Assembly: GCA_963831935.1 (NCBI GenBank)
Contig: CAWHSH010000004.1
Coordinates: 461,571-525,570 of the forward strand
Reading direction: 5' to 3'
DNA from: an uncultured Bacteroidales bacterium
GTDB taxonomy: Bacteria; Bacteroidota; Bacteroidia; Bacteroidales; VadinHA17
DNA length: 64,000 nucleotides
In this document: positions 45,989 to 62,677 of the stretch, one piece after another
Numbering within the stretch: the stretch's first letter is position 1
Layout: each line of letters starts with the position of its first letter
Made by a program: the position numbers and the translations under genes
The notes under the pieces: generated by a model
What the model saw: the letters and a program-made list of their open reading frames with translations, nothing else
Told to the model about the DNA's origin: nothing
Databases searched by the model: none

Positions 45989-48900
45989 TTTTTCCTGATT
46001 GCATTCAAATACCCATCCGTCGTAACCACCCTTGTATTATACTCCCTGATGAACTTTTGAAGCTCAGGATCATCGGGATACTGATCGCTTTTTGAAGGAG
46101 GATAGCTTTTCATTCCGTGAAACGGAAGAGGCAAAACCGTTTTGCCAGACGCGGTATTAAGATCACCGTCTTTCACCCAACCCACACTGCGGATAAGGAA
46201 ATCCCTTTTCCATCCCTGTTGCAGCGGTGGCAATCCACTGTCAGAAAAAGAAACAGTGGTTTCATCTCCTGCGTTAGTTATAATGTACTTATTGTCAGAC
46301 TCTTTAAGGAGAGTCAGCACATCTCCGTACCTTGTATAATCGCCGGTCAGATCCCGCCATCGGGGTTCACTGCTTACTTCTGAATAATCAAACCAGTGAG
46401 GGCCATATCTTCCTCCCTTCCTGTAACTCCTTGAAAATCCCCTGTAATGCAGATCAGCAGCGACGGGGTCCAGAACATTAGATACAACTGGCTCTGTTGT
46501 CAGGCAATCTGAAAAGAAAATCTGATCCCAGTATATTTCCATATTGGTCCTGATCCGGATCCGGTGATCGGGTGTGGTTATTTTACCCGAGAGGTCCACA
46601 ATAACTGTTTTATCCTTACCCATTGGAAAACCTGGATGATCATTCACCGTTTCCCATTCGCCTTTCTTGTTAATTACCTGGATTACAGGAGGTATAACTT
46701 TAATATCAGATGATTGTGAAACAGCAACATTTATGCTGGCATCGGTAGGGAAAATCCATCCGTTCATAAAGAGAAATACATTTCCTGTGATATCCATGCT
46801 CCCGGGATCAAGAATCAGATCATGCAATTCAGTGATTCCCTGGTATCTTGCTGGCTTTAATCCGGCAATGTAGCTGTCATCCTTTTCAATTATAAACGAC
46901 CGGAGGTCTGTTCCGTTTTCATCTGTTACCGATGCCGGAAAATATTTACCTGCAACACTGTAAATCCTTAATTCCGGAAAAGGGGGAGGAGTAAACTGCT
47001 CTGCAACATAAATTTCCGTTGAAGCTGGATGATCAACTGTAACCAGCTGTAATTTATCGAGATATATTGTCTCCCATAATTCTGATGTTACCTGAATTGA
47101 ATAGATTCCGTTATTCGGTTTCAGTAGTTCCCCGGGTATTTTTAAATAATCATCCGAAGCATCGGGAAATGCATAAACCGTTGTGCCTCCCATAATACCT
47201 GAAGGCATGCCCAGCGCGCTTCTCCACAAAATATCTTTTGCAAAAATATATTCACTGCCATCCCAGGTGTAAAGGAACGGGCATGATCCTTTAAGCATCT
47301 GGGCTTCAATGAGCGACTGGTCGGTTTCGGGAAAGAAGATATTCTGCGGAACGCCGTTGGTCCAGGTAATGCGTATTACATCAGCCTTTGAGCGGCTTCC
47401 AATACCAAAATGAATATTGGGATCAGTGACCACCTTTGTCTGGTACAGATCGCCTGACCGTAATTCTACCTTTGCTCCTATACCGAAGTAGTTATTTTTT
47501 GCACTGCCCGCTCTCAGGCCCACGAGTTTCATGTTTATGAAATGGCCTGCATTACCTCCATCGTTTCTCAAAAGGAATACACCTCCGTTAAGTCCTGCAA
47601 CCACTAAATCGAGATCGCCATCATCATTGTAATCCATAATGGCAATCTGCTTTCCTGATTTGATTTCCTGCGGCAACAGCTGAGACATATCGGTGAAACT
47701 GCCCTTACCGTCATTATGATACAGTAACAATCCCCGTCCGCTCTTTTCTGCTGATTCCCCTGCAAAACAAATATCAAGGAATCCATCGTTGTCAAAGTCT
47801 ATAAATGCGGCATCATAGGCATTTACATTCTGAAGAGCCCTGAATACCTCCTTTGTTTTGCTGTTCTTTTCAAAGGTACCATTTCGCATATTATGGTACA
47901 GTTCATGATTGCCACCATTAATTGAAGTGACAAAAAGATCGAGATATCCGTCATTATCATAATCTCCGGCAGTAACAGCTCCGGAGTTCCCATCACTCTT
48001 CAATCCGCTGCCTGGAGTAATATCCTTATATAATCCCTGACGCTGGTTGGAATAAAGAACATTCCCTGTATTTTTATTTACTACAAAAAGGTCAAGATCA
48101 CCATCTTCATCAAAATCGCCAAAAGCTGCGTCAGTGGTAATAAATTTATCCCCTGCCAAACCCATTTTTGCTGCCTGTTCCTGAAAAGTGCCATCAGAAT
48201 TATTACGGAAAAGCAGGTTTGAATTTGACTCCATTTCAAACAGATCAAGGTCGCCGTCATGATCGGCATCGAAGAACAATGCATTATTGCCTCCGGTTTT
48301 GCTGCCGATTTTTGCACTGTTTGTCACATTCTCAAAAGTTCCTTTTCCTGTGTTGCGATATAATAAATCACCTTCATCCCTCACAATGTACAGGTCGAGG
48401 AATCCGTCATTATCGAAATCAGCAAATGAAGCTGAAGTCTCTTTCCCGGAATGTCTGATACCAGCTTCCGCAGAGACATCATTAAAACTACCCATTTCGT
48501 TTTTTAGAAGATAATGTTTATAAGATGAGGACCCGGGATCATAGCTGCCGGCATAAATGTCGATGTCACCATCCCCGTCGTAGTCGCTCAGGGCAACATG
48601 AGTAGAGTACTTAAAGCCCGGATTTTCACCCTCCCTGAACTCTTTTATAATATCCAGTCCTGCAGAGGCAGATACATAACTGAATTTAATTGCACCTGCT
48701 ACTGATTCAGTTGAAACCGGCTTAAATAAAGACTGCTGGTCGAATGTTATCAGCGGAAAACCGATAAGGGAGCCTCCGGGACCTTTTAAATCCATCATAC
48801 CTGACTGGTAAGGAGATGTGACCTTCAGATAATTGTGAAAAATCGTAAAGTTGGTGATCAGGTTTTCCTTATCCCCGCTCCGCAGGGCGGTCATGGTTTT

Positions 48901-49545
48901 ATCGAAATATTCCGCGGCTTCCTTTGGAAATTCAGGAAACTGTTTCCTGATAGTTTCAAGTTGTTCTATTGCCTTGTCGGAATTTCCCCGCCTGATGTAT
49001 ATTTCAGTCAGATTAAGCTGCGGAACTATATTCCCCGGAGCTTTCTCCACAAGCTTTTGCAGGTACTGTTCACGTTCATTTTGAGATTCTTCATCCGGCC
49101 TGTCAGCGTATATTTCGGTAAGATCGTACAGTGTTTTTATATGATCAGGAGAAGAAACCAGTGCCTCCTTTAATTGTGCTATTGCGTCTTCCGGATCATC
49201 CTTCATCTGGTAGACTGTTGCCAGAATCAACCTGATATCAGGGTCTTTGGGGTCAATCTTTATTGCTTTGAAAAGCGTTTTTTCGGCATCCTGGTATTTG
49301 CCCATCCTTAAATAGGTGAGCCCAAGGTTTGCATATCCCATTTTATCTTTTGGGGAGAGGTCGATGAACTTCAGGAATTCCTTTTCGGCTTCGTCAAGCT
49401 TGAACTCTTCCAGGTATGCCAGACCAAGGGTCCGGACTGTTATCAGATCAGTCGATTTCTGACTGTTTTTTTCCGTCTGGTTCCTGCAACTGATAAGTAT
49501 TGAAATGCAGAAACCTGTCAGTAACAAGAGGCTTAATTTTTTCAT
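45985..49545 (-). CDS. TPR + FG-GAP/VCBS + ASPIC/UnbV lipoprotein with about 450-aa uncharacterised C-terminal domain (CRTAC1-type, copy B)
   Basis: Lipobox ILISCRN. TPR repeats (aa about 40-230). At least 8 FG-GAP units (DFDNDGFLDLY etc.). ASPIC/UnbV region (HFINMKLVGL..IGAKVEL..IRITWTNG). The tail starts at GSCPFLYTWDG. Confidence 0.8.
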   Translation of the reverse strand: MKKLSLLLLTGFCISILISCRNQTEKNSQKSTDLITVRTLGLAYLEEFKLDEAEKEFLKFIDLSPKDKMGYANLGLTYLRMGKYQDAEKTLFKAIKIDPKDPDIRLILATVYQMKDDPEDAIAQLKEALVSSPDHIKTLYDLTEIYADRPDEESQNEREQYLQKLVEKAPGNIVPQLNLTEIYIRRGNSDKAIEQLETIRKQFPEFPKEAAEYFDKTMTALRSGDKENLITNFTIFHNYLKVTSPYQSGMMDLKGPGGSLIGFPLITFDQQSLFKPVSTESVAGAIKFSYVSASAGLDIIKEFREGENPGFKYSTHVALSDYDGDGDIDIYAGSYDPGSSSYKHYLLKNEMGSFNDVSAEAGIRHSGKETSASFADFDNDGFLDLYIVRDEGDLLYRNTGKGTFENVTNSAKIGSKTGGNNALFFDADHDGDLDLFEMESNSNLLFRNNSDGTFQEQAAKMGLAGDKFITTDAAFGDFDEDGDLDLFVVNKNTGNVLYSNQRQGLYKDITPGSGLKSDGNSGAVTAGDYDNDGYLDLFVTSINGGNHELYHNMRNGTFEKNSKTKEVFRALQNVNAYDAAFIDFDNDGFLDICFAGESAEKSGRGLLLYHNDGKGSFTDMSQLLPQEIKSGKQIAIMDYNDDGDLDLVVAGLNGGVFLLRNDGGNAGHFINMKLVGLRAGSAKNNYFGIGAKVELRSGDLYQTKVVTDPNIHFGIGSRSKADVIRITWTNGVPQNIFFPETDQSLIEAQMLKGSCPFLYTWDGSEYIFAKDILWRSALGMPSGIMGGTTVYAFPDASDDYLKIPGELLKPNNGIYSIQVTSELWETIYLDKLQLVTVDHPASTEIYVAEQFTPPPFPELRIYSVAGKYFPASVTDENGTDLRSFIIEKDDSYIAGLKPARYQGITELHDLILDPGSMDITGNVFLFMNGWIFPTDASINVAVSQSSDIKVIPPVIQVINKKGEWETVNDHPGFPMGKDKTVIVDLSGKITTPDHRIRIRTNMEIYWDQIFFSDCLTTEPVVSNVLDPVAADLHYRGFSRSYRKGGRYGPHWFDYSEVSSEPRWRDLTGDYTRYGDVLTLLKESDNKYIITNAGDETTVSFSDSGLPPLQQGWKRDFLIRSVGWVKDGDLNTASGKTVLPLPFHGMKSYPPSKSDQYPDDPELQKFIREYNTRVVTTDGYLNAIRKK

Positions 49546-49574: not shown

Positions 49575-50687
49575 TCACCTGATGATCACTGGTAGTCCAT
49601 CCTTTACCAGCCTTGTTTCAAAATCTCCTGAACGGTTTCCCTTATCGTCAAACTGAACAGTTCCGGTGACGCCAATGAAATTCATACTTGCCAGCGATCT
49701 CTGAATTTTCTCACGATCGGGCTTCCCGGCAATTATAATTGCCCTGATCAGAACATTCATACCATCAAATGAATAGGAAGCGACTATGCCCGGCAATTTC
49801 CCAAAAGCTCTCTGATATTCCTTCCTGAAGGTCAGATTTTCTGATTCCGGCCAATTTCCGGAAGGGACCAAAAGGATGTCGTCATAAACCTGTAATCTCT
49901 GACTTGATAATTCATTTTCATTCAGAAGCATAACTGGTCCGAACAGGAGCTTATCAATTTTTTTCTTCCGGATCTTACCTATTATTTCAACCGAAGCTGA
50001 AGGATTGCAGAATAATATAATACACCTGACCTCTGGTTTACCTATTTCTTCAATTAAAGCATCGGATTTAGTTTCAAAATCATTATAACAATATTGAACC
50101 GGATCGGGTTTCCCTGACATTTTTCCAAGTTTCAGGAAATTGTCTTTCGCCATTTTTGAATCGTAATCATTGCTGTAAATAATGGCTGCCTGTTTGATTT
50201 TTCTTTTATTATATATTTCTTCTATTAGTGATGCAGCCTGTTGGCGGTCGTTTGGAACGCAATTGAAAAACCATGGAACAAATGCCTGTGACAGAGTTGG
50301 ATCAGTTGCCCATGCCGATAAGAATACCACCTGGGATTTTGTTGCGGCCTGTTCCACGAGGTGAGCATTCCTTCCGTCGTGTGATCCGAAAAGTGCCCAG
50401 ACCTTCTCCTCAAAGATAAGGTCTACAGCCTGTTTGGAACCTGTACCCCACGGACCTTCCATTGACCTGGTCACAAGCTGAAAAGGATGTCCATTTAATC
50501 CCCCTGATTCATTAGCCTTTCTGACAGCCATCTCAGCACCCTGTACTGCTGAGGTATATCTGTTGTCCTGAATTAGCAACCCGATTTTTATTGTGCGGTC
50601 TGAATTTCCCGGATCCTGGGAAAAGGTTTTAATGGAGGTTAAAGATATCAGGAGAAAAAGGATCAGGCAGATCTGAAATATTTTCAC
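49575..50687 (-). CDS. LivK-type (Peripla_BP_6) periplasmic substrate-binding protein, orphan
   Basis: Signal peptide. IKIGLLIQ...GGLNGHPFQLV...VWALFGSHDG pattern typical of the branched-chain/aromatic-acid SBP family. No permease or ATPase nearby. Confidence 0.7.
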   Translation of the reverse strand: MKIFQICLILFLLISLTSIKTFSQDPGNSDRTIKIGLLIQDNRYTSAVQGAEMAVRKANESGGLNGHPFQLVTRSMEGPWGTGSKQAVDLIFEEKVWALFGSHDGRNAHLVEQAATKSQVVFLSAWATDPTLSQAFVPWFFNCVPNDRQQAASLIEEIYNKRKIKQAAIIYSNDYDSKMAKDNFLKLGKMSGKPDPVQYCYNDFETKSDALIEEIGKPEVRCIILFCNPSASVEIIGKIRKKKIDKLLFGPVMLLNENELSSQRLQVYDDILLVPSGNWPESENLTFRKEYQRAFGKLPGIVASYSFDGMNVLIRAIIIAGKPDREKIQRSLASMNFIGVTGTVQFDDKGNRSGDFETRLVKDGLPVIIR

Positions 50688-50774: not shown

Positions 50775-51662
50775 TCAGGTATTTTGATCATACTCGTTCT
50801 GATAGATCTCCCTCCCCACTGCCTGTGCTACTTTTCTGAGATCGGCCATCAACTTTGAGAATTCATCCGGACTAAGCGACTGCTGGCCATCGCATAAGGC
50901 TTCTTCAGGTTTATAATGCACCTCCATGATGAGGCCGTCGGCTCCTGCTGCAATTGCAGCTTTTGCCATGGCAGGAACCATCCATCTGTGGCCGGTCCCA
51001 TGACTTGGATCCACAATTACTGGGAGATGACACAGGTGTTTAAGCATCGGGACAGCGCTCAGATCAAGAGTGTTACGGGTAGAAGTCTCAAAAGTCCGTA
51101 TACCTCTCTCGCACAGGATTACCTGGTCATTACCCTGGTTAAGGATATATTCTGCAGCAAGGAGAAACTCTTCAATGCTGGCCATCATGCCACGTTTAAG
51201 CAATACCGGTTTTCGGAGCAGTCCCACTTCCTTTAAAAGCGGATAGTTTTGCATATTCCGCGAGCCGACCTGTAGAATATCAGCATATTCGGCAACCATT
51301 TCAACCAGCCGGGTATCCATTACTTCGGTGACAATAGGCAATCCTGTTTCCTTTCTGGCTTCCCTGAGCAACTTTAATCCTTCCTCTCCAAGCCCCTGGA
51401 AGTTATATGGAGATGAACGTGGTTTGAAAGCACCTCCTCTCAAAATCACTCCCCCCGAAGCCTTTACTGTTTTTGCTGTCTCTATCAGCTGTTCCTGGTT
51501 TTCGACTGAACAAGGTCCGGCAATTATAACAATTTCTGAAGAGCCAATCCGGATTTTACTTATTTTTACTACTGTCGGATCCGGTTTCGACTTGCGGTTT
51601 ACCCTTACCGGAACAGAACATCCTCCAATCATTGCCGGATCATTGTAATGATTTGATTCCAT
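50775..51662 (-). CDS. 3-deoxy-7-phosphoheptulonate (DAHP) synthase, type I-beta, stand-alone
   Basis: [48 protein letters not shown]. No fused chorismate mutase domain. Confidence 0.85.
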
Positions 51663-51682: not shown

Positions 51683-52994
51683 TTAATATCCTGTTCTGGC
51701 TTTTTTATAAATTTTATCACTTTTCTCCAAGGGAGGAGCGGGTGAAAATATAAATTTACCGTTATTGATCTCTGCCATGAATATTGGTCTTATATTGTTC
51801 CAGGTTGCATCAAAGATCACTTTACCCGTAACACCCTGATATCCCTGGAAAGTTTTCATATCTGTAAGAATATCACGGATCAATACCCGGTTTAAGCCCA
51901 CTTTCCGAATGGCTTCAATTATCATGTTCATTCCGTCATAGGCATGTGCGGCAAACACATCCGGCTCCTGGCCAAATCTTTTTAAATAGTTGGCTTTAAA
52001 TGCTTTCAGTTTTGGATCGTTCGCATCGGGATTATACTGGCATGTGGTTACAATGCCTTCGGCCGATTTACCTGCAATACTTAGAAATTCTGCAGATAAC
52101 CATCCTGTCAGAACCATATACCGGTTGGTTCATTCCCAGTTCCCGGATCTGCTTCAGAATCAGAGCCGATTCTTTGGCATTTCCCCAGATCTGAATCGCA
52201 TCCGGTGAGGTTTTCTTTATTCGTTCCAGCTGTTCTTTGAAATCAGTCTCTCCATCGTTGAAACGTTCTTCTATTACCAGGGGAAAGCCTATACGTGTAG
52301 CTGAACGGGTAAAATGCAGGATTCCCACTCTCCCATAACGGTTGTTGGACCTTATTACTGCAACCCTCGAGTGTCCGTCTATTTTAAAAATACGGTTAAC
52401 AAGAGCATAACTGCTTTGCCGGTCATCAGGTATGTTACGAACGACCCATGGTATTGCTGTTTCTGTAAAAGTAGGATCGGGATCACCGGTGTTGACGTTT
52501 GGGATCTCAAGTTTTAAAGTTGCTCTTATTGCAACATGTGACACTATATCATCAATTGATCCCAGCCATGCCCATACTTTTTCATCGTCCATTTTCACTA
52601 CCTCATTTGCAGCAGCACCCCATAGTCCTACATCGTTGTGTATCATCAATTTAAAAGGCAGTCCTTTATAACCTCCCCTCTTATTTGCTTCTTCAATGGC
52701 AAGCATTGATCCCTGAAGCATCTGCTTTCCCAGTGATACTAGGACTGAACCCTCCAGTGGTCCGAGAAAACCTATCCTTACTTCTTTAATGTCAGTCGGA
52801 GGGAGCTTTTCACGACCGGCACCGTAAAACTGTACAGGTTCGAGAAAATGATATTTATAGGCCTTCTGATATTTGTCAAAAGCTACCAGCTCATCCGGTA
52901 TATTGCCATAGTTAACTTTTTTCTCCTGTCCATTGGCAGATGAAAAGGCAGCTAAAAAAATAGAACTTATTAAGATCTTAAATATTGGTTTCAT
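51683..52994 (-). pseudogene. LivK-type periplasmic substrate-binding protein, second orphan copy, one frameshift
   Basis: Fragments 52068..52994 (signal peptide, VRIGFLGPLEG..GGYKGLPFKL) and 51683..52117 lie in different phases. Confidence 0.7.
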
Positions 52995-53003
52995 ATTTAA
53001 AGG

Positions 53004-53600
53004 TTAACTTATTTTACAAATTGCATAAGCTTCAATCTCTACAAGGAGGGTTTCCCAGCATAGCCTTGCCTGTATTCCGGTACTGGCAGGCAAAGGATCC
53101 AGATTCATCCACCTGAAGAAAGAAGTTCTTATTTTGTTGAATTCTTCATAGTCTCTTTCAATATCCCTCAGATAATTAGTGGTCCTGACCACATCATGCC
53201 ATGTCATTCCTTCAGACTGGAGGAGATTTGTTATATTCCTGTAAGTTCTCCAGGTCTGAGCTTTAAAATCACCAATATGTTCTGGTTTGCCATCTTCATT
53301 CACACTGGCTGTTCCGGAAATCAGCAAGGTCTTATAACCACCAAATTCAAGCCGTAACGCCCTGGTAAAGGAGGATGGTTTTTTATAATCATATGCTTCA
53401 TTAATAACCTGCGGAGCATGAACGGAGGCTTTCTCAATGGGAGGCCGTTCCTTATGAACAGCAGGATAGTTGTAGCTGTGAATGAAGGTATCATCTGACA
53501 ACATTCCAAGTTTTGTCATCTCATCACGCTCCCCTTTCGTAAGCTTTGTCAGATCTATTAATAATTGTGTATTCTCTGTTTTATAACCTGGGATTATCAT
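53004..53600 (-). CDS. YjgF/RidA-fold protein with N-terminal extension (chorismatase FkbO/Hyg5-like SGTAS motif)
   Basis: LLISGTASVNEDGKPEHIGDFKAQTWRTYRNITNLL...VEIEAYA. The RidA-type core is preceded by about 70 extra residues. No signal peptide. Confidence 0.55.
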   Translation of the reverse strand: MIIPGYKTENTQLLIDLTKLTKGERDEMTKLGMLSDDTFIHSYNYPAVHKERPPIEKASVHAPQVINEAYDYKKPSSFTRALRLEFGGYKTLLISGTASVNEDGKPEHIGDFKAQTWRTYRNITNLLQSEGMTWHDVVRTTNYLRDIERDYEEFNKIRTSFFRWMNLDPLPASTGIQARLCWETLLVEIEAYAICKIS

Positions 53601-53626: not shown

Positions 53627-54817
53627 TTATCTGAGCAACTCACCCCTGCTGACTCCACTTGAAGTAGCAACCCACAAAACATCATCTTTCGCATCAACAC
53701 CTATAATAAAATTATGTGAAATTGATGGGGAAAGCTGTATTTCTTTCTTTTCAGACCCTGTTGTAATAATTGCTTTACCATTCCGGCTGTTGTCATCTTT
53801 CTTATATGTGACCCATGTTGTGCCGTCAGTACTGCTTAATCCGTTGTCGCTGCATACAAAAACTACCCTGCCTTCAGCTCTCAGGAAATTGATAAAATTG
53901 CTGGCAAGGCCACTGTCTTCTTTAAAATAGCCTTTCCAGTTTTTCCCGTCGTAGCGGCTCATACCGAAGTAGGTCGAGACCCATAATATACTGTCGGCAT
54001 AAGAAGTGGCGGTTGTTATATCATGGACTATGCCATCATCGGGCTGAAGGTCAATTTCCATAAAGCCGTCGGGATCAGTGTAATCCCTGAAATGTCTGGT
54101 TTGTGTATTGTATTCTATCACGCCGCCTCCCCATGCGGCAATCCAGACTTTTCCATCCCCGGCTGACAGGGCATAGGTCCATGGTTCATGCATCGGGGCA
54201 TTCATTTCAGTGAATATTTCCCATTGCCTTGTTTCAGTATCATAATGTCCGGCACCGCCACCAGTGGCAACCCAGATATCTTTTCCGTAGCAAAAAACGT
54301 TGTAAACCAAATCATTTGGCAATCCGCTGTTGAACTGGTTAAAGGTCTCAAATTTACCGCCGGACCAGCGGTTGAGACCTCCCAGTGTTCCGATCCAGAC
54401 ATCACCGGTGAGCTGGCTCACATCTATGGATACAACACCATTATGAGCCAGTCCATCTTTCGTGGTGTATGTATGCCATTTATCATTTTCATAAACTGCG
54501 AGACCATCATGTGTTCCGACAAGTACACGGTTTCCATCAATCCTTACCGTATAGGCTTTGTCTGATGGCAGTCCGTCCTTTGATGTAAAGTTACGCCAGT
54601 GTCCATAAACAGGCATGGCTCTCGCTTCCTTTATTACACCGGAACTATTACCGGGACTGGTATCACTGGTATTTGGCGGGATGCCGGCTATGGATTGATT
54701 ATCCTTCTTTTCAGGCCTTTCATCTCTCACCGGTTTTTTTATTATTATCAAACCTGCCACCACAACAACTATCAGGATTATTGCAGTGATAAAATATTTA
54801 AATGACTTTTTTTTCAT
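53627..54817 (-). CDS. Membrane-anchored two-component-regulator-propeller (Reg_prop) repeat protein without output domain
   Basis: N-terminal TM (ITAIILIVVVVAGLIII). Repeated units VWIGTLGGLNRW / IWVATGGGAGHYD / VWIAAWGGGVIEY / LWVATSSGVSRG. Confidence 0.7.
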   Translation of the reverse strand: MKKKSFKYFITAIILIVVVVAGLIIIKKPVRDERPEKKDNQSIAGIPPNTSDTSPGNSSGVIKEARAMPVYGHWRNFTSKDGLPSDKAYTVRIDGNRVLVGTHDGLAVYENDKWHTYTTKDGLAHNGVVSIDVSQLTGDVWIGTLGGLNRWSGGKFETFNQFNSGLPNDLVYNVFCYGKDIWVATGGGAGHYDTETRQWEIFTEMNAPMHEPWTYALSAGDGKVWIAAWGGGVIEYNTQTRHFRDYTDPDGFMEIDLQPDDGIVHDITTATSYADSILWVSTYFGMSRYDGKNWKGYFKEDSGLASNFINFLRAEGRVVFVCSDNGLSSTDGTTWVTYKKDDNSRNGKAIITTGSEKKEIQLSPSISHNFIIGVDAKDDVLWVATSSGVSRGELLR

Positions 54818-54940: not shown

Positions 54941-56977
54941 TTAATTATGTCTCAGCGATGCATGGAGTATTTTGGTTTTGTTTTGTTCGTATTCAGGGTC
55001 TCTGAGAGATTTAAGGTATTCTATCAGTTCGTTAAGCTCTATTTTGGTAAGATCATTGACCGATCCATGTTGTTCAGTTTTGCCGTATAATGTCCATATT
55101 TCTTCAAGTGTCCTGGCACGTCCGTCATGCAGGTACGGAGGTGAAGCGAAAATGTTGTTCAGATGAGGAGTGTCGAAAAGTATTGAATCATCTGAAAAAG
55201 CAAGTGTACCGACATCCGCTTTTTTCTTATTTGTAAAATATGGGGCAGGATGACAGGTTACACAACGGTTCACAACCGGGATCTCATAGCCGCGTTTATC
55301 GTGTGTCCGTTCAAAAATCTCCTTTCCACGAATCTGTGCTTCCGTGAGCTCACCATCCGGATTATACAAAAGGTCAGGAGGATTGTCTATTCCGGTCATA
55401 ATATATGCGGTTATGGCATCAAGCTCTTTGTAGTTGAAGGCTTCGGTTCTGGTCAGGACGGTGGAAAACCTCATGCCATCCTGTTTGTAGACTGACTGGT
55501 TCATCCCGTTCCATTTATATGGAGGTGTTTCGCCAATATGCCTTAGCGATTGAGTGTTTGTCATATTCCGACCCATATCTTTTGATGCCATATTGTAGAC
55601 GAGCCCGTCTTCGTGGGCATCAGGATGACAGGTATAACATGAGTACTGGTTCTGAAAAGTATGTCCGGCATTATTGAGCAGCCTGCGTCCAAGGCGGTGG
55701 ACAGTAATCCGTCTTGGTCCGCCCAGATCAATTGTTCCGATTGTTCCAAGACTGTCGGTGCTGATAACAGCTATTCTGTCCTGTAGATGTTCAGCAACAT
55801 AAAGTCTTTTACCGTCAGGAGAAAGCGCTAGACCCTTTGGATTGGCTCCGGTGGGAATCCGTTTAATAACAAACCGACTGCTTATACCGAGGTGATTGGA
55901 ATATAAATTAAGCATTTCATCAGTTGATTCCGCAAGGATATCCCTTACAGCACCTATATCTATTACAGAAATGCAATCCACGCCCGAATGGGAAACAAAT
56001 GCCCTTTTGCCATCGGGAGTAATAGCTATTCCAAAAGGATCAGCATAATATGCGTTTGGTTCATCAAGAAGCAGTTGAATTATCCTTCCCGGTGATCCTT
56101 GTTCAACGATTCCTATCCCGTCTGTCATCATCCAGCCTCTTTCAACCTGTAAAGTGGGGACATTGTTTTTTGGTCTTATAAGAGGCATAAATGCCAGGTC
56201 ACCGGAGGGAGTAAAAGCTATATTTTCCATCAGGTAGGCCGATTTGATATCCTTTCGATCAACGACCCTTTGGTTTTTGTTATTTACAACCGTCAACTCA
56301 CATCTTATGGTATCTCCAAATGGGGCAGATAAGGTCCGGCGGCTTGTTACATACAACAGTTTGCCATCGGGGGAAATTTTTACACCCGTTGGATTGTTGC
56401 CGGCAGAAAGCCTTTTTTGTTCAGTTCCTGTAGAAAGGTCGATCACTGATATGTCGGATGAGAAAGAGTTTACAACATAAAGATATTGTCCGTCAGCACT
56501 TAATGCCAACCCTGCCGGACCATTCCCGGTTTTGAGGGTGTCGGTTACGATGAACTTTTCAAGGTCGATTACCGATACATTATCTGACCATTGATTGCTG
56601 ACAAAAGCCGTTTTCCCGTCCTTGCTCAGTACAACACTATGCGGACGAATTCCGACCCTGATCTTATGTTTTACCTTGCCTTTTTCAGTATCGACCACAA
56701 GCAATGCATTACCTTCTTCTGCAACTGCATAAAGATCTCTCCCGTTTTCGGAAACAGTCAGATTAAATGGGGAATAATATTGGGCATCAATGAATTTTGA
56801 AATAATCTTCGACTTTTTTAAATAAAGGTGGCACGACAAACACTCCAGCGGATGATCAGTAGCGGCAGTCATATAGTTAACATGCTCCCGTGCCCAGCGG
56901 TGAAAAGGAAAAGATAAAACAGCACCAACGGTAAATAGAGCTCCAAGAGGTATTATAATCTTTAAATACTTTCTCAT
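54941..56977 (-). CDS. Tri-haem protein: N-terminal anchor + CXXCH, YVTN-type beta-propeller, di-haem cytochrome c peroxidase/MauG-fold domain
   Basis: CLSCH near the N-terminus. At least 6 blades (PHSVVLSKDGKTAFVSN, PAGLALSADGQYLYVVN, PTGVKISPDGKLLYVTS, PKGLALSPDGKRLYVAE). CYTCHPDAHEDG, CVTCHP, PPYLHDGRARTLEEI. Confidence 0.8.
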   Translation of the reverse strand: MRKYLKIIIPLGALFTVGAVLSFPFHRWAREHVNYMTAATDHPLECLSCHLYLKKSKIISKFIDAQYYSPFNLTVSENGRDLYAVAEEGNALLVVDTEKGKVKHKIRVGIRPHSVVLSKDGKTAFVSNQWSDNVSVIDLEKFIVTDTLKTGNGPAGLALSADGQYLYVVNSFSSDISVIDLSTGTEQKRLSAGNNPTGVKISPDGKLLYVTSRRTLSAPFGDTIRCELTVVNNKNQRVVDRKDIKSAYLMENIAFTPSGDLAFMPLIRPKNNVPTLQVERGWMMTDGIGIVEQGSPGRIIQLLLDEPNAYYADPFGIAITPDGKRAFVSHSGVDCISVIDIGAVRDILAESTDEMLNLYSNHLGISSRFVIKRIPTGANPKGLALSPDGKRLYVAEHLQDRIAVISTDSLGTIGTIDLGGPRRITVHRLGRRLLNNAGHTFQNQYSCYTCHPDAHEDGLVYNMASKDMGRNMTNTQSLRHIGETPPYKWNGMNQSVYKQDGMRFSTVLTRTEAFNYKELDAITAYIMTGIDNPPDLLYNPDGELTEAQIRGKEIFERTHDKRGYEIPVVNRCVTCHPAPYFTNKKKADVGTLAFSDDSILFDTPHLNNIFASPPYLHDGRARTLEEIWTLYGKTEQHGSVNDLTKIELNELIEYLKSLRDPEYEQNKTKILHASLRHN

Positions 56978-56979
56978 AT

Positions 56980-58413
56980 CTATTCCAGTTCTACGATTTT
57001 TTCTTTGATCGCGGTAATATGAACAGGGATGATCACCGGAGCTTTTGTTACAGCAAGGGATACCCTGTTTTCCGGTACCAGTTCAGGATCTTCATGACAA
57101 CCGATACACCCGCGGCGTTCATTTGGGCGTAACCATAACCATGAGCACGGGCCATTTATGACATTTCCTTTTTCATCAAGGGTTCTGATCCGGAATGGAG
57201 TGTCGGCCAAAACTTTTAAATTAAATGAGCCGTCCTTTTCCACCTGAACAATCCCGTAAGTAGTATCGACACCCAGAACTTCAATCTTCCCTGCCTTTGG
57301 CAGATTGCCAGGACCAACCGGCAATAACGGATTAATAAAGTTAATATTCTGGCAAAGCAGTAATCCGGTCTTTACCTGCATATCCACTTCGCTTGGCAGC
57401 TTCTTAGGCATTTCATGCTCCCTCACCTCAGCAACATCCAGAACATTATATTGAGAATCAGAAAAAATTGTTTGCCCGAGTGACTTTTTGACCGGATCAA
57501 AAACAAAAAGAGCAAAATTTTCTAAATCCGATCTTCGGAAAGAAACCAGATATTTGTCCGTATTAAGAGGCATTACATAAAAAAACTCTCCATCGATCCC
57601 GGATGAAATATTTTTGCGTGTATGTAAAGGTCTGTTGTAACTGATCGAGATCACATCTTTTCCTTCTTTATTCCCTTCATCAGTTTCGATAAAAACAATC
57701 CTGCCATCGGTTGTTTCGTTTGCTTTGCTTAACAAAATGCTGCCTTTTTCCGCCTCATAAAACAGGTCGGCTTTGGTTCCGTCGGGGCGCATGACTTTTA
57801 ACATTGGAGTGCCCGTTTCCGGCATCACTGGCATGCTTAATGTCAGCAGCCTGCCATCCTTTAGAACAGAAGTAACAATGTTGGTCTGAGGACTGAATGT
57901 TATCTGTTTCAGGCCGGAGCCATCGGGATTACATGTAAAAAGGCAATGTGCTTTCTTCACAGTGTCATTGACAGTCAGTTTACTGAATACCAGTCGTCCG
58001 CCCGGCAGATAGGCCGGATCAGTGCAGTCTTCTCTGAATGACCTGATTTTTCTGGATTTAAGATTAACAAGCTCCATCTCCCAGATCTGCCAGGGATCGT
58101 TTGCATTCTGCTGTGCCGCAAAAAGCATGAATCGGCCGTTAAATGAAATTTCAGGAAAGGAGGCAGAATAAAAATCTTTCGTAAGGACCTTAAATGATGC
58201 AGGTTTATCGGGATTGAATGCGACTATCCGTGCCCCGGGCAAATATCGCCGGGATTCACCGGAGATATAATCATGATCCTGAATTTTACCCGGATACTCA
58301 GTTGCCACCAGCATCCCGCTTCTAACTGATTTTCCCCTGCATGAAAGTAAAATCACAGAGGAGATACTTATGCAAGCTGCGCTGAGTATGATAGTTGTGC
58401 GATTAATTTTCAT
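56980..58413 (-). CDS. HzsA-like lipoprotein: TolB/PD40-type propeller + C-terminal mono-haem (CIGCH) domain
   Basis: Lipobox ILLSCRG. PD40-like blades. C-terminal GPCSWLWLRPNERRGCIGCHEDPELVPEN resembles, from memory, the hydrazine-synthase alpha middle-domain family. Confidence 0.6.
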   Translation of the reverse strand: MKINRTTIILSAACISISSVILLSCRGKSVRSGMLVATEYPGKIQDHDYISGESRRYLPGARIVAFNPDKPASFKVLTKDFYSASFPEISFNGRFMLFAAQQNANDPWQIWEMELVNLKSRKIRSFREDCTDPAYLPGGRLVFSKLTVNDTVKKAHCLFTCNPDGSGLKQITFSPQTNIVTSVLKDGRLLTLSMPVMPETGTPMLKVMRPDGTKADLFYEAEKGSILLSKANETTDGRIVFIETDEGNKEGKDVISISYNRPLHTRKNISSGIDGEFFYVMPLNTDKYLVSFRRSDLENFALFVFDPVKKSLGQTIFSDSQYNVLDVAEVREHEMPKKLPSEVDMQVKTGLLLCQNINFINPLLPVGPGNLPKAGKIEVLGVDTTYGIVQVEKDGSFNLKVLADTPFRIRTLDEKGNVINGPCSWLWLRPNERRGCIGCHEDPELVPENRVSLAVTKAPVIIPVHITAIKEKIVELE

Positions 58414-58422
58414 GAACCAGTG

Positions 58423-60123
58423 TCATTTAGGCTCTTTAACTTCCAGGATCTGATTTGCTTTGATATTTTCGAGTGTCTGTACTTTACCGGATGGCCAGGT
58501 TATTTCTATCATGTCGGCAGTTTCATTTTTAGCGAGGCCGAAATGCATCCTCGGGTCATTTTGTGAAAGGTAACCGGTTGTACTTTTTTTCTGTGCCGTC
58601 TGGACTTTGCCTCCGGATGTTAATTTCACCCTTGCTCCGACTCCGTCGCGGTTGCTGGTTGTACCTATAATATTAATTATCAGCCAGTTGTTCTGGTTGC
58701 CTTTATTATTGCGCAGGAATACTGACTGGCTGTTAAGGTTAACGATAAATATATCCATATCGCCGTCATTGTCATAGTCACCGAGGCATGCTCCGCGTCC
58801 GACAAGCTCCCTTTGAAAGTATTTGCCCAGTTCCAGGGATACATCCCTGAATTTGCCGGTGCCGTCGTTATTAAACATCTGGTCTTCCTGCCCATACAGG
58901 TGTTTAAGAGCACCGTTGGTTTTAAAGATGTCGACATCGCCGTCATTATCGTAATCGACAAATGATGAAGACCATCCTACAAACTGTGCTGCAGCCATCG
59001 ATATATTTGAAGAAACACCTTTATCCGAGAAAATACCGTTACCCATATTCTCATACAGTGAGCAGTAGGAATCATCAGACACAAACAGATCGAGTAGTCC
59101 ATCACCATTAAAATCAGAAAAATCGACCGACATGCTTACGGTTGCTTCACCTGCCTGACTGAATGCTGTACCTGACATTGTTCCGTTATTGACAAATTTC
59201 TTTCCCCCTTCGTTATGCCAGAGATAATTCAATGTATGATCGTTGGCTACATAAATATCAACATAACCGTCCTGATCATAATCCGCTGCACCCACACCCA
59301 TAGCTCTGCCATCAACATCTGTTATACCCATGCTTTCTGTTACATCGCTGAAAGTTCCGTCACCGTTGTTATGATATAAAACATCCTTCTGGCTGTCGTA
59401 GGCCATAGGACCCGGGAAACCGTCGGGAGCGTAATAGTATTTATACTCCGGATCGAACTCAAGATAATTGCCAACATAAATATCCAGGTAACTGTCATTG
59501 TCATAATCAAGCCATACTGCTCCTACACTGCACTCCTTTCCTCCGCCGGTATTTGACCGTCGTGTAACATCCGAAAATGTGCCGTTCCCGTTATTCTTAA
59601 GCAGCACATTCGGGCCATAATTACTAATGTATATATCAGGATAACCATCGTTATTGTAATCACCGACTGTGACACCCATGCTATACCAGGGCCCGCCCAC
59701 TCCGGCTCTTTTTGTAACGTCTTCATAAGTTCCGTCGCCCCTGTTGCGGAAAAGGTGGTTCCCGGGCAATTCAGCCGGTTTTTCACTCTTGCTGAAACCT
59801 TCAATCCATGTGCCGCTGCAGGCATATATATCAATGAAACCATCCTGGTCATAGTCGAGAAAAGCGGCGCCGCCTCCGTCTGATTCAATAATATTGGTCA
59901 GATCGCTGGCACCTAAGGAGTGAATAAAATTCAGTCCGATCTGCTGTCCTATTTCCTGAAAATAATCTTCAGAGGCAGCAGGAATATTTGCTGAAGTTTT
60001 CTTTCCTGCCCGGGGAGAGGGATTATTTGACTGGCAACCCTGAAAGGCCAGAAAAAGGATAATAAAAAAGAGATAATACCTATTTATATTTATATTTCTC
60101 CGAAAATTCTTTTTTCTAATCAT
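58423..60123 (-). CDS. CRTAC1-family lipoprotein (FG-GAP/VCBS + ASPIC/UnbV), copy A
   Basis: Lipobox LAFQGCQ. FG-GAP units (DYDQDGFIDIY, DYNNDGYPDIY, DYDNDGDVDIF). C-terminal NNWLIINIIG..YLSQNDPRMHFGLA..ITWPSG. Confidence 0.85.
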   Translation of the reverse strand: MIRKKNFRRNININRYYLFFIILFLAFQGCQSNNPSPRAGKKTSANIPAASEDYFQEIGQQIGLNFIHSLGASDLTNIIESDGGGAAFLDYDQDGFIDIYACSGTWIEGFSKSEKPAELPGNHLFRNRGDGTYEDVTKRAGVGGPWYSMGVTVGDYNNDGYPDIYISNYGPNVLLKNNGNGTFSDVTRRSNTGGGKECSVGAVWLDYDNDSYLDIYVGNYLEFDPEYKYYYAPDGFPGPMAYDSQKDVLYHNNGDGTFSDVTESMGITDVDGRAMGVGAADYDQDGYVDIYVANDHTLNYLWHNEGGKKFVNNGTMSGTAFSQAGEATVSMSVDFSDFNGDGLLDLFVSDDSYCSLYENMGNGIFSDKGVSSNISMAAAQFVGWSSSFVDYDNDGDVDIFKTNGALKHLYGQEDQMFNNDGTGKFRDVSLELGKYFQRELVGRGACLGDYDNDGDMDIFIVNLNSQSVFLRNNKGNQNNWLIINIIGTTSNRDGVGARVKLTSGGKVQTAQKKSTTGYLSQNDPRMHFGLAKNETADMIEITWPSGKVQTLENIKANQILEVKEPK

Positions 60124-60530: not shown

Positions 60531-61907
60531 TTATGAAAAGGAAGGAAGCTTAATTATAACAGTCGTTCCTTTTCCAACAATTGATGACAGACTGATTAAA
60601 CCATTATGGTTTTTAATTATCCTTTTCACGAGAGAAAGTCCTATCCCGCTTCCAGGAACAGAAGCCGAATTGGCTCCCCGATAGAAAGGTTCAAAGATTT
60701 TCCCGAGATCTTCTTCTGATATACCAACACCTTTATCTTCAAAAATAACTTCTATCCATTTTTCCGAGTGTGCGAACTTTATATCCACCGCGTGGCCGGG
60801 CGAGTATTTGCATGCGTTTTCTATAATATTTGAGACTGCAACCTTAAGTAAATACTCATCTCCGGCCACAGTCATCTGATCTGAATCGGTCAATGAGCTG
60901 TCAATTGAAATATTAATGCGGAATCCGTCATTAAACTTCCTTATCTCATCCTGAGCCTGCCAGAGGATGTCATCTATCCTGACTTTTTTATTAAAATTCC
61001 CGGGACTTTCAGAACTGGTTCGCGCTATAAGCAACAACCTGTTTAACAGGTCGATCAACGATCTGATATCTTCAAGCACTGACCCAACGGCAGCCTTATA
61101 CTCTTCTGTTGACCGGTCTTTCAGCATCAGGATCTCCAGCTGGCCGTTTATAGAGGTAAGCGGTGTCCTCATCTCATGCGAAGCGTTGGCAATAAAGTCC
61201 TTCTGCGTGGCAAAGGATGTTTCAAGCCGTTCAAGCATCTTATTGAATGTTTTTGCGAGTCTGCCGATCTCGTCAGTTCCATTGCCTTCATTTACTCTAA
61301 GATTAAGGCTGGTAACAGAAATATCTTCCACTTTTTTCACTACGTCCGAGATCGGCTTTAGTGCTCTGTGTGAATAAAACCACCCGGCAACAAAAAATAA
61401 TAAAAAACTGACCAGGCAAACAACCAATAATATTGTTTTTAATTTTTTCAGGTGTGAAAACCCTTCGCTATCGGTAGCAGCAGCAATCACCACAAATTGA
61501 GCCTGAGTCCGGTTCACCCTATATAATGCCCCCAGGACTTCAAATGAACCCTGTCTATAAGTAATCCTACCGGTTGATTTTATTTGTTGAAGAATCTCAT
61601 TTGTTACTTTTATTTCCCCGGTTTCATCCGAACTATATAATGTATCATTCAGATTGTTGAGAATGATTATTCTTTTGTTTTGCAGGTTTGCAGGATTATC
61701 ATTTTCGATAATCCTTGCAAGGTCCGGGGCTGGTGCATATGGATCCAGAATAAATCTGGCTGTGCTCCTTGACTGATTCCTTAAACGGGCGTAAAAATCC
61801 TCTTTCCGGAAATTGGCCGAAGAATAATATATTGCAATTGATGCAATTATCATAATTAATCCTCCCAGCAGGAGAAACTGTAAGGTTAATCTGGTCCTTA
61901 TCTTCAT
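60531..61907 (-). CDS. Sensor histidine kinase (2 TM, HAMP, HisKA, HATPase_c)
   Basis: H-box ASHEMRTPLTSI, N-box and G-boxes (GVGISEED, GSGIGLSLV), two hydrophobic helices flanking a periplasmic segment of about 130 aa. Confidence 0.9.
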   Translation of the reverse strand: MKIRTRLTLQFLLLGGLIMIIASIAIYYSSANFRKEDFYARLRNQSRSTARFILDPYAPAPDLARIIENDNPANLQNKRIIILNNLNDTLYSSDETGEIKVTNEILQQIKSTGRITYRQGSFEVLGALYRVNRTQAQFVVIAAATDSEGFSHLKKLKTILLVVCLVSFLLFFVAGWFYSHRALKPISDVVKKVEDISVTSLNLRVNEGNGTDEIGRLAKTFNKMLERLETSFATQKDFIANASHEMRTPLTSINGQLEILMLKDRSTEEYKAAVGSVLEDIRSLIDLLNRLLLIARTSSESPGNFNKKVRIDDILWQAQDEIRKFNDGFRINISIDSSLTDSDQMTVAGDEYLLKVAVSNIIENACKYSPGHAVDIKFAHSEKWIEVIFEDKGVGISEEDLGKIFEPFYRGANSASVPGSGIGLSLVKRIIKNHNGLISLSSIVGKGTTVIIKLPSFS

Positions 61908-61998: not shown

Positions 61999-62677
61999 TT
62001 AGTAATCTCCAAAGATATAGCCAAAGCCGACTTTTGTATGAATGAGCTTTTTATTAAAGTCTTTATCGATCTTTTTCCGCAGGAAATTTACATAAACGTC
62101 GACAACATTTGTTCCGAAATCAAAACTGACGTCCCAGACTTTTTCAGCAATATCATTTCGTGAAAGTACGCGTCCGGCGTTTCTCATAAAATACTCCAGC
62201 AAAGAAAACTCTTTGGCTGTCAGTTCAATATGGGAATTACCACGGGAGGCCACTTTCCTGTCAAGATCAAGTTCAAGATCCGCGACTATCAGCTTGTTTA
62301 CAGTATCGTGCAATTGTTCTGCTGTTTTAAGCATGACTTTGACTCTGGCAAGCAGTTCCCTGAATTCAAAAGGCTTTACAAGATAGTCGTTGGCACCAGC
62401 ATCAAACCCTGTTAATTTATCTTCAGTTGTTCCGAGCGCGGTGAGCATAAGTACAGGTATCCCGGGATAGAGCTTTTTGAACTTTTTGCATAGTTCGATA
62501 CCATTGATCCCCGGAATTATTATATCGAGTATAAAGAGGTTGTATTTATACTGGCGGGCAAGTTTTTCGGCTGTCATCCCGTCGTAAGCTATTTCAGCTT
62601 CATACAGGCTCTCTTCCAAGACCTTTTTTTATAAACGAGGCAACCTTTGGTTCATCCTCGACAATCAATATCTTCAT
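61999..62677 (-). pseudogene. OmpR/PhoB-type response regulator, N-terminal frameshift
   Basis: ORF 61999..62619 lacks the first REC strand. MKILIVEDEPKVASFIKKGL is encoded from 62677 in another phase. The winged-helix output is present (LTAKEFSLLEYFM..VVDVYVNFLRKKID). Confidence 0.85.

Follow-up and report, generated by a model that had tools for sequence, protein, structure and literature searches.

Distant homologs of hydrazine synthase at a Bacteroidales locus: family assignment, haem sites and candidate functions

Background

Co-localised genes for homologs of the alpha subunit and of the beta and gamma subunits, fused (betagamma), of hydrazine synthase (HZS), the enzyme of anammox bacteria, have been placed in four clades, I to IV (Hagglund et al. 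2025, Genome Biol Evol, PMC12758564). We analysed a 64-kb stretch of DNA from an uncultured Bacteroidales bacterium (hereafter the window, by which the whole stretch is meant) that carries such a pair of genes. The first open reading frame (ORF), at 56980..58413, encodes an HzsA-like lipoprotein of 477 amino acids (aa); the second, at 54941..56977, follows after 2 nt and encodes an HzsBC-like fusion protein of 678 aa. We refer to their products as the alpha-like and betagamma-like proteins. These genes, and all other features described below, lie on the minus (-) strand. The pair had been pointed out in an earlier note on this DNA, and the positions and lengths of both ORFs, the 2-nt gap and the quoted motifs ILLSC, CIGCH, CLSCH, CYTCH, CVTCH and YLHDG were all found again in the sequence.

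In clades I and II an FG-GAP gene lies between the alpha and betagamma genes. Clade III has an FG-GAP/CRTAC1 gene upstream of alpha and two substrate-binding protein (SBP) genes downstream; its members have no haem alphaII, one extra haem motif in betagamma, a Trp at the position of gammaHis144 and no Tyr591 (PMC12758564). Hagglund et al. judged these homologs unable to make hydrazine and proposed no function for them. Their supplement includes betagamma hits of 675-678 aa in Maribacter and a 446-aa alpha hit in Flavobacteriaceae (PMC12758564). Genes similar to hzsA have also been reported just upstream of hzsBC-like fusion genes in metagenome-assembled genomes (MAGs) of Phycisphaerae UBA1845 and KSB1, and a broad family of HZS-like enzymes with alternative substrates was proposed (Dalcin Martins et al. 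2023, PMC10732223). Our literature searches turned up no experiments on an HZS homolog from outside anammox.

By architecture and gene order, as read from the sequence, the window locus matches the clade III type, and every listed feature agrees. Here too the alpha gene is directly upstream of the fused betagamma gene, and the FG-GAP/CRTAC1 gene (58423..60123) lies upstream of alpha, not between the two. Two ABC (ATP-binding cassette)-type SBP genes follow downstream, at 51683..52994 (frameshifted) and 49575..50687. As in clade III, the alpha-like protein is without haem alphaII and the corresponding C-terminus, and the betagamma-like protein has exactly one extra haem motif. The Phycisphaerae and KSB1 pairs reach comparable bit scores against Kuenenia (89-163; here 67-172), but they belong to another phylum, and their authors considered them, along with hao, nxr and ETM genes, as potential new candidates for anammox. 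In contrast, no hao, nxr or ETM genes lie near the window locus, and its residues argue against anammox. The locus joins a family that has already been published and described bioinformatically, and is no new kind of system; the earlier note rated its novelty too highly, as the family, including this gene order, was already in print.

Assignment to the hydrazine synthase family

The alpha-like protein has a lipobox (ILLSC, aa 21-25), followed by an N-terminal TolB/PD40-type propeller and an HZS_alpha middle domain. Pfam HZS_alpha (PF18582) matches aa 386-441 (57091..57258) with an E-value of 1.9e-18 and 67.2 bits against a gathering score of 26.6, and the matched region aligns with residues 501-562 of Kuenenia HzsA (5c2v_A). 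The top NCBIfam match is the HzsA model NF052339 (hydrazine_alpha), at 86 bits against a cut-off of 800. A phmmer search of PDB sequences returned 5C2V chain A as the sole significant relative (8.4e-18, in three collinear stretches). An exact look-up of the protein gave no identical record.

The betagamma-like protein, for which a 100% identical record exists (P0121), has a membrane anchor or signal at its N-terminus and carries an extra haem besides its propeller and its di-haem domain, the last with the motif YLHDG at aa 615. NCBIfam models of hydrazine synthase are again the top matches: the HzsBC model NF052342 (hydrazine_BC) reaches 243 bits (cut-off 1250), the HzsB model NF052340 211 (cut-off 560) and the HzsC model NF052341 80 (cut-off 625). 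With phmmer, 5c2v_B aligns from end to end (1.4e-49; query 67-407, chain 12-349) and 5c2v_C, the HzsC chain, in two stretches (1.3e-18). The Pfam matches are to the YVTN, lactonase and cytochrome-D1 families over the propeller and to CCP_MauG (PF03150), the latter at 33.6 bits against a gathering score of 25.6. The HZS_alpha, CCP_MauG and YVTN/lactonase matches are those that the earlier note had forecast.

AlphaFold2 (AF2) models were compared with solved structures by using Foldseek. The model of the alpha-like protein (m53970cc55989) has a mean pLDDT (predicted local distance difference test) of 76; the value is about 90 over the propeller (aa 60-330), and the model is weak past aa 430, with the haem pocket below 50. 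Foldseek ranks 5c2v_A first (6e-21, TM 0.65-0.67). In the betagamma-like model the HzsB-like YVTN propeller (aa ~65-420, 55718..56785) is reliable, with pLDDT ~90, and the di-haem domain has values of 22-58. The first Foldseek match is 5c2v_B (7e-32, TMt 0.89, root-mean-square deviation 2.8 A over 344 columns). The YVTN propeller reported in the earlier note is present, and its count of "at least 6" blades is corrected to 7.

A sceptical reading of these data would be that an ordinary TolB-like protein happens to lie beside an ordinary fusion of a YVTN propeller with a cytochrome c peroxidase (CCP) domain, and that the likeness to HZS is a superficial coincidence. TolB, PD40 and Tricorn_N-type repeats are indeed detectable in the alpha-like propeller, and the database names of the proteins ("hypothetical", "YVTN family beta-propeller", "PD40 domain-containing") point in the same direction. 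However, TolB reaches only an E-value of 0.38 with phmmer, and the TolB equivalog model TIGR02800 scores 16.7 bits against a cut-off of 343. A profile built from 41 diverse members of the alpha-like family matches 5c2v_A at 4.8e-50 and TolB at ~1e-13, which puts HzsA ahead by 37 orders of magnitude, and in the Foldseek search it leads TolB by ten. The earlier note had named a missing HZS_alpha match, with TolB as best hit, as the outcome that would speak against its proposal; HzsA, not TolB, is the nearest relative. The match to HzsB, moreover, spans the domain from end to end and includes a loop insertion, and the alpha-like and betagamma-like genes adjoin, with gaps of the kind seen in translational coupling, at 75 of 75 informative loci (see below). 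Profile, Foldseek and synteny results together rule out the coincidental reading, to which we give virtually no credence.

Kuenenia HzsA, HzsB and HzsC are the best solved relatives of the pair by sequence, and HzsA and HzsB are so by predicted fold as well. The likeness goes well past what chance would give, and we are highly confident that the pair is a distant homolog of anammox HZS and belongs to the family named above. Its NCBIfam scores fall below the HZS equivalog cut-offs, in summary by 5-10 fold. The fusion of beta and gamma in Scalindua, mentioned in the earlier note, is real (NCBIfam NF052342 and the published papers).

Conserved gene order and distribution

Scanned at one genome per species, GTDB yielded at least 582 genomes in which a relative of the alpha-like protein occurs. 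An exhaustive protein search returned 2658 clusters at 50% identity with E <= 1e-3, 364 of them with E <= 1e-30. The alpha-like family is far larger than the published "few homologs" and includes cultured aerobes. Gene order was scored by tblastn of the window proteins against the best 80 of the species-level loci; the denominators given here are informative loci. These best 80 loci come from Bacteroidales, Rikenellaceae, Prolixibacteraceae, Flavobacteriaceae, Cytophagales, Rhodothermales and Gemmatimonadota, and the Flavobacteriaceae include the cultured carriers Maribacter polysiphoniae DSM 23514 and Lutimonas saemankumensis.

The betagamma-like gene lies directly downstream of the alpha-like gene at 75 of 76 loci. 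The exception, locus L077 (CP070731.1, "Flavobacteriaceae bacterium bin416 chromosome"), has a joint of 100 N right after the alpha-like gene. Runs of 100 N recur in this record every ~3.5 kb, so that the "chromosome" is a concatenation of short contigs and adjacency across its spacers is meaningless; the count is therefore 75 of 75 informative loci, in keeping with the co-occurrence that the earlier note had named as a check. From the alpha-like stop to the betagamma-like start, most distances fall between -4 and +15 nt. Co-translation of the two genes, which belong to a conserved operon, is almost certain.

The gene order at the locus is response regulator (RR), sensor histidine kinase (HK), FG-GAP/UnbV_ASPIC, alpha-like, betagamma-like, Reg_prop-like, RidA-fold, SBP, 3-deoxy-7-phosphoheptulonate (DAHP) synthase, SBP and TPR/FG-GAP/ASPIC. 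An FG-GAP gene directly precedes the alpha-like gene at all 67 loci, and a Reg_prop-like propeller gene follows the betagamma-like gene at 63 of 64. The first SBP gene (SBP1) is present at 53/54 loci, the second (SBP2) at 42/50, the downstream TPR/FG-GAP gene at 45/50, the RidA-fold gene at 46/57 and DAHP synthase at 43/52. The HK was found at 25/56 loci, the HK and RR genes lying upstream in the Bacteroidales subset of the loci. DAHP synthase is absent from the Flavobacteriaceae loci, and it and the RidA-like gene are missing from whole sublineages (such as Flavobacteriaceae and L075-L084). Four metagenome contigs with close homologs keep the gene order of the window. A contig labelled as a Chloroflexota MAG (JBLNAO010000045.1, L063) has the full Bacteroidales-type order, including RR and HK, with 45-82% protein identity to the window. 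This points to wrong binning of a Bacteroidota contig or else to the recent transfer of an entire operon.

To the description by Hagglund et al. (2025) these data add the Reg_prop-like propeller as a fourth near-obligatory partner. As judged from the alignments described below, the deletion of the gammaCys165-Asp168 loop in this clade, an invariant His32 next to the extra haem and an alpha haem without a conserved distal ligand are further additions.

Haem sites and the residues of hydrazine synthase

The residues that define HZS are those given by Hagglund et al. (2025) and by Versantvoort et al. (2025); they were mapped onto the pair through alignments with the PDB sequences. Numbering offsets were fixed by the aligned CXXCH motifs: the chain index equals the paper number minus 27 for alpha and minus 39 for gamma (from C102/C105/H106). 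Conservation figures refer to alignments of 166 diverse alpha-like and 72 betagamma-like sequences.

The single haem motif of the alpha-like protein, CIGCH (aa 436-440, 57094..57108), aligns with CSGCH of Kuenenia, the motif of haem alphaI. C436, C439 and H440 are kept in 98% of the 166 homologs and stand within an invariant block, W425..R429-P-N-E-R-R-G-C-x-G-C-H-E-D..P447-x-N449. Outside the CXXCH motif, no His, Met, Tyr or Lys is conserved at 90% or more in these homologs, which speaks for a haem that is open to substrate and against one that is a six-coordinate electron carrier. In HZS, haem alphaI is ligated by Tyr591, and His587 of the CXXCH motif binds Zn together with Cys303 (Hagglund et al. 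2025, PMC12758564; Versantvoort et al. 2025). C-terminal of CIGCH the 477-aa protein contains no Tyr, and in the family a Tyr within 8 aa of the CXXCH His occurs in just 2 of 87 members. The 477-aa protein thus lacks the Tyr591/His587-Zn arrangement, and for His440 the role of an ordinary proximal ligand is predicted. The position of alphaCys303 (chain index 276, in GNCDGE) is taken by a Glu of FYEAEKG. Since the protein ends 37 aa after its CXXCH motif, the haem alphaII domain, in HZS a C-terminal cytochrome c domain with a bis-His haem, is missing. This is typical of the family: 129 of the 150 best alpha-like representatives have a single CXXCH, at a median of 40 aa from the C-terminus.

Two cysteines outside the haem motif, C130 and C354, are conserved in 86% and 81% of the alpha-like homologs. 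C130 aligns with a Cys of Kuenenia HzsA (LKGTCRSP). The two could be joined in a disulfide that links propeller and middle domain, or could be metal ligands.

The betagamma-like protein has three haem motifs. The extra one, CLSCH (aa 46-50, 56828..56842), is N-terminal to the propeller; C46, C49 and H50 are 100% conserved, and candidates for the sixth ligand are H32 (100% conserved) and H42 (94%), so that a bis-His haem is predicted. The gammaI-type motif, CYTCH (aa 447-451, 55625..55639), aligns with CASCH of Kuenenia (gammaC102/C105/H106), and the gammaII-type motif, CVTCH (aa 572-576, 55250..55264), with CLECH; both are 100% conserved. The predicted distal ligand of the gammaII-type haem is His637 (55067..55069), which aligns with the His of "DMHG" in Kuenenia. 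H576, H617 and H637 are each 100% conserved and aligned to His residues of Kuenenia, and the gammaII-type haem is predicted to be bis-His, as is gammaII of HZS. In HZS the gammaII haem, at about -330 mV, supplies gammaI, whose potential is about 0 mV (Versantvoort et al. 2025).

The surroundings of the gammaI-type haem are altered. In HZS, Cys165 provides a third covalent link to haem gammaI and Asp168 is the proton donor. The loop that holds them (SSLDRVCGRD) falls in an alignment gap, and there is no Cys at all between aa 452 and 571 of the 678-aa protein. GammaGlu122 aligns with Lys466. At the gammaHis144 position stands Trp489 (55511..55513; PPYKWNG aligned with PPFRHEG), which is a Trp in 72 of 72 homologs. 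A Trp at this position in clades I-III, as in CCP and MauG, was noted by Hagglund et al. (2025, PMC12758564).

The blade-6 loop of the propeller, by contrast with these losses in the pocket, is among the features shared with HZS. The insertion RPKNNVPTLQVERGWMMTDG (aa 268-287, 56117..56176) aligns with TPKNWLPVCEAENGQVFTNN of Kuenenia, and K270, N271, P274, Q277, G281, M283 and M284 are each conserved at 95% or more. In the monomer model this loop comes out disordered, with low pLDDT. HZS is an (alpha-beta-gamma)2 complex with a tunnel from haem gammaI to haem alphaI, and the corresponding loop is found inside this tunnel, between its two active sites. E219 of the Kuenenia beta chain aligns with Q277 and E221 with E279; either of them may be the published Mg-binding Glu, which was reported as unconserved among the homologs (Hagglund et al. 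2025, PMC12758564).

These comparisons bear on whether the pair is itself a hydrazine synthase, that is, whether Bacteroidales have a cryptic anammox capacity. In favour of this, the same three building blocks are present and HZS (PDB 5C2V/5C2W) is the nearest characterised relative: the alpha propeller with its haem-alphaI middle domain, the seven-bladed, cofactor-less beta propeller with the blade-6 insertion, and the gamma di-haem domain of CCP/MauG fold with both gammaII His positions are common to the two, beta and gamma are fused as in Scalindua, and both systems are periplasmic or extracytoplasmic. However, identity to the pair is only ~20-29%, and the scores of 86 vs 800 (alpha) and 243 vs 1250 (BC) are far from those of equivalogs. 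The Tyr591/Zn/Cys303 site, the haem alphaII domain and two insertions of ~55-60 aa in HzsA have no counterpart here, nor do gammaCys165, gammaAsp168, gammaGlu122 and gammaHis144. Conversely, the additional N-terminal haem and membrane anchor on the betagamma-like protein and the lipid anchor on the alpha-like protein are not features of HZS. The gene order is also reversed, with beta and gamma first in anammox HZS and alpha first here. HZS has an HDH/HAO partner, whereas no HDH/HAO-type multihaem gene lies within the 64-kb window, in which no real gene besides the two ORFs carries a c-type haem motif. Finally, the family occurs in aerobic Flavobacteriaceae, and its members were judged incapable of hydrazine synthesis (Hagglund et al. 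2025). A true hydrazine synthase is rejected at the sequence level, and the chance that the pair is one is negligible. The HZS-like label of the earlier note holds for architecture and descent and not for chemistry, as the catalytic residues of HZS are absent; its proposal of an HZS-like periplasmic haem complex acting on a substrate it left open is in line with the evidence and with Hagglund et al. (2025).

Candidate functions

The C-terminal domain of the betagamma-like protein belongs to the fold superfamily of the di-haem CCP, MauG and MbnH proteins, with which it has in common two CXXCH motifs, a "P-Y-x-H-D-G" motif and an inter-haem Trp. Unlike these, it is part of a propeller fusion and has a second haem protein as its partner. 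Against the PDB, a profile of the gamma domain matches HzsC at 3.3e-31 with both haem halves covered; the MbnH-type structure 6e1c is second-best, at 8.7e-9. Both 6e1c and the bacterial CCPs (bCCPs) 1iqc, 3o5c and 6qkn align over the C-terminal half only, from profile position ~162 on. The N-terminal half, which holds the peroxidatic haem, matches HzsC only. We had considered Q499, ten residues past Trp489, as a distal Gln like that of CCP and MauG; this was dropped, since HMMER aligns no CCP over that half.

The similarity to bCCPs allows for a periplasmic CCP-type system, in which the gamma-like di-haem domain would reduce H2O2, the alpha-like haem and the propellers would be accessory, and a sensor would respond to oxidative or metal stress. 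The Pfam CCP_MauG match, the alignment with three bCCPs and the invariant Trp489 at the inter-haem Trp position of CCP and MauG, where HZS has His, all agree with such a system, as does the presence of the family in aerobes and anaerobes alike. The HK and RR are of a CusRS-like subfamily, and the H2O2-responsive HprR is among the matches of the RR. However, the half of the domain that carries the peroxidatic haem aligns significantly with HzsC and with no CCP. The distal ligand is Met in CCP; in the alignment with 1iqc the Met of "ETMG", which we take to be the haem ligand, stands opposite the non-invariant Y631, and His637 is the invariant residue. With His637 in place of Met, a bis-His haem of low potential is predicted, in contrast to CCPs, whose His/Met haem has a high potential. 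Nor would the obligatory alpha-like haem protein and the conserved tunnel loop be explained; the periplasmic domain of the HK is nearly without His, Met and Cys, and HK and RR occur at 25 of 56 loci only. We regard a CCP-type function as rather unlikely.

Alternatively, the di-haem domain may act in maturation, as MauG and MbnH do, its high-valent oxidant modifying a residue or cofactor of a partner (the FG-GAP, alpha-like or anchored propeller protein) or a shikimate-derived metabolite delivered by an SBP. The rank of 6e1c in the profile search, weak NCBIfam matches to MbnH and MauG and the Trp at the MauG Trp position are consistent with this. So is the company that the enzyme keeps: it is never alone, the FG-GAP, alpha-like and Reg_prop-like partners are essentially obligatory, and FG-GAP is a partner in clades I and II as well, its gene lying between alpha and betagamma. 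DAHP synthase and a protein of RidA/chorismatase fold that lacks the RidA catalytic Arg are frequent in the operon. Yet the His/Tyr ligation that defines MauG is not indicated, His637 being invariant, and the similarity to MbnH and MauG is confined to the C-terminal half. No small precursor or target gene is evident. The DAHP synthase and RidA-like genes, missing from the sublineages named above, are not part of the core, and the alpha-like haem would be left without a role. A maturation function seems quite unlikely to us. With the gammaI pocket remodelled, peroxide reduction and MauG/MbnH-like oxidation nevertheless remain serious rivals of the reading that follows.

The reading that we favour, with about even confidence, is that the pair forms the core of a periplasmic, membrane-tethered HZS-like haem complex of a Bacteroidota type that is not a hydrazine synthase. 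It is likely that the alpha-like and betagamma-like proteins form one complex. Two-site reductive chemistry on a small molecule is possible, at a little short of an even chance; as a guess made with low confidence, the molecule would be a small N- or O-oxide, and the choice of NO or NH2OH as the particular substrate, made on evolutionary parsimony, is doubtful.

In this complex, electrons would enter through the extra N-terminal haem (CLSCH, with the invariant His32). As the N- and C-termini of the propeller are expected to be adjacent, the peptide of the extra haem (aa 30-65) should lie near the junction of propeller and gamma domain, which fits a role in electron entry. From there electrons would pass to the gammaII-type haem (His576/His637), presumably bis-His and of low potential as in HZS, and across the invariant Trp489 to the gammaI-type haem, which would be ligated by His451 and have no conserved protein distal ligand. 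A small diffusible oxidant would be reduced there. The product would then move past the conserved blade-6 loop to the alpha-type haem, where His440 would be the ligand, no distal ligand is conserved and the invariant R-P-N-E-R-R-G-C-x-G-C-H-E-D sequence would line the pocket, and undergo a second conversion. NO or NH2OH might in this way be reduced towards ammonium with no N-N bond formed, which would be the simplest ancestral chemistry for the evolution of HZS. On this reading, two open-site haems on different subunits, a conserved tunnel loop and a low-potential bis-His entry haem suggest that the ground plan of HZS survives.

Several points weigh against this proposal. The distal pocket with which HZS gammaI reduces NO is unconserved (the Cys165-Gly-Arg-Asp168 loop is deleted, Glu122 is replaced by Lys466 and His144 by Trp), so that the chemistry of NO conversion to NH2OH cannot be transferred by homology. 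A route for electrons to the alpha-type haem is not evident. The di-haem domain and the alpha haem pocket are modelled at pLDDT below 50, and tunnel and interface are assumed from HZS. The SBPs, DAHP synthase, the RidA-fold protein and three CRTAC1-like proteins are unexplained by a simple reductase of small oxides. Carriers include strict anaerobes as well as aerobic marine Flavobacteriaceae, which indicates no single substrate.

The FG-GAP, Reg_prop-like and SBP partners are, indeed, explained neither by the favoured complex nor by a peroxidase or a maturation enzyme. A more far-reaching proposal takes them in: the pair, the FG-GAP lipoprotein, the Reg_prop propeller and the two SBPs without transporters might together form a multi-propeller periplasmic haem machine for channelled N-oxide chemistry outside anammox. 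One possibility is that NO would be reduced to NH2OH at the gammaI-type haem, and that at the alpha-type haem either a further reduction would follow or the N-O intermediate would be transferred onto an amine or amino acid delivered by an SBP. We consider this machine improbable.

Genes of the operon and its surroundings

The RR at 61999..62619 is of the OmpR family (top NCBIfam match TIGR01387, a heavy-metal response regulator, 210 bits against a cut-off of 279); its ORF is called from a TTG start and is probably truncated at the 5' end. The HK at 60531..61907 is CusS/CopS-like, with HAMP, HisKA and HATPase_c domains in Pfam and a full-length match to TIGR01386 (215 vs 292.5 bits), and a gap of 407 nt separates its gene from the operon. 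Over their full length both proteins thus match the heavy-metal (CusRS/CopRS/HprRS-like) subfamily best, below cut-off. The predicted periplasmic segment of the HK contains hardly any His, Met or Cys, so that the kinase probably does not sense a metal bound as in CusS. We set aside the two-component system as a clue to copper or peroxide: the context is weak, given this segment and the share of loci that carry the genes. A scan for sigma-70 promoters and terminators gave numbers near the shuffled expectation; a sigma-70 scan is unsuited to Bacteroidota.

The first gene of the operon (58423..60123), 9 nt upstream of the alpha-like gene, encodes a CRTAC1-like lipoprotein of 566 aa with seven FG-GAP repeats and UnbV_ASPIC (Pfam FG-GAP_3 3.6e-54, UnbV_ASPIC 2.8e-24). 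Its sole relative in the PDB is human CRTAC1 (9etn, 1.5e-23). Two paralogs lie further downstream in the operon, a protein of 1186 aa with N-terminal TPRs, FG-GAP and UnbV_ASPIC (45985..49545) and an FG-GAP and UnbV_ASPIC protein of 603 aa (44177..45988), with a 4-nt overlap between its start and the stop of the gene before it, so that this one operon holds three CRTAC1-like proteins. Loci L002 and L003 have a fourth FG-GAP/ASPIC protein of ~1100 aa upstream, beside a SusC/SusD pair. Literature searches yielded no functional data for bacterial CRTAC1/UnbV proteins, nor for PF18582 outside anammox.

Downstream of the betagamma-like gene lies that of a membrane-anchored single beta-propeller of 396 aa, the Reg_prop-like protein (53627..54817; PDB 4a2l at 1.7e-21, 3v9f at 4.6e-14). 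These matches relate it to the periplasmic sensor propellers found in hybrid two-component systems of Bacteroides, and it is the fourth core partner. The RidA/YjgF-fold protein that follows (53004..53600) is 198 aa long, of which ~90 aa form an N-terminal extension, and lacks a signal peptide; it matches Pfam Ribonuc_L-PSP at 1.6e-16 and shows weak similarity to FkbO/Hyg5 chorismatases (Pfam 1.1e-4; TIGR04444 7e-6). We rejected this neighbour as a link to imine or ammonia chemistry, as the RidA catalytic Arg aligns with Ser and the gene is absent at 11 of 57 loci. The type I-beta DAHP synthase (50775..51662; NF006421, 458 bits against a cut-off of 335) shares its operon in most lineages, and the two may point to a shikimate-derived metabolite.

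Both SBPs are of the Peripla_BP_6 type, and no ABC permease, ATPase or other transporter genes are found nearby. SBP1 (51683..52994), a protein of 440 aa in relatives, is split here near 52098 into overlapping ORFs of 308 and 144 aa; tblastn with the intact 440-aa homolog of locus L001 places the change of frame at residue 301 (52098/52099). This is either a true frameshift, making SBP1 a pseudogene, or a single-base assembly error. SBP2 (49575..50687) has 370 aa, and its closest matches in the PDB, distant ones at 1e-9, are branched-chain amino-acid binding proteins.

Beyond the third FG-GAP/ASPIC gene, the region 42165..44163 encodes an Asn_synthase-like PP-loop protein (442 aa) and then a radical SAM protein, whose best NCBIfam match is the archaeosine enzyme RaSEA (2.1e-20, under the cut-off). 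The PP-loop/radical SAM pair occurs with an FG-GAP/ASPIC gene upstream of the HZS-like operon at L015, L057 and L070.

Implications

Hydrazine synthase was long held to be without relatives, and its non-anammox homologs are the sole available route to the evolution of N-N bond formation. The Bacteroidota branch of these homologs is very large, with synteny that is nearly invariant across the loci compared. As a practical caution, an "HZS_alpha" annotation or a weakly scoring hzs match in a MAG of Bacteroidota is not to be taken for anammox potential. The family also occurs in Flavobacteriaceae that are cultured, aerobic and potentially amenable to genetic work (Maribacter polysiphoniae DSM 23514, Lutimonas saemankumensis), which makes the function of an HZS-like complex testable at the bench without anammox enrichment cultures. 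Should the multi-propeller reading with N-oxide chemistry prove true, the complex would be a living ancestral state of hydrazine synthase, and would add to the nitrogen cycle a branch that is both new and very widespread, with carriers in at least 582 species, culturable Flavobacteriaceae among them.

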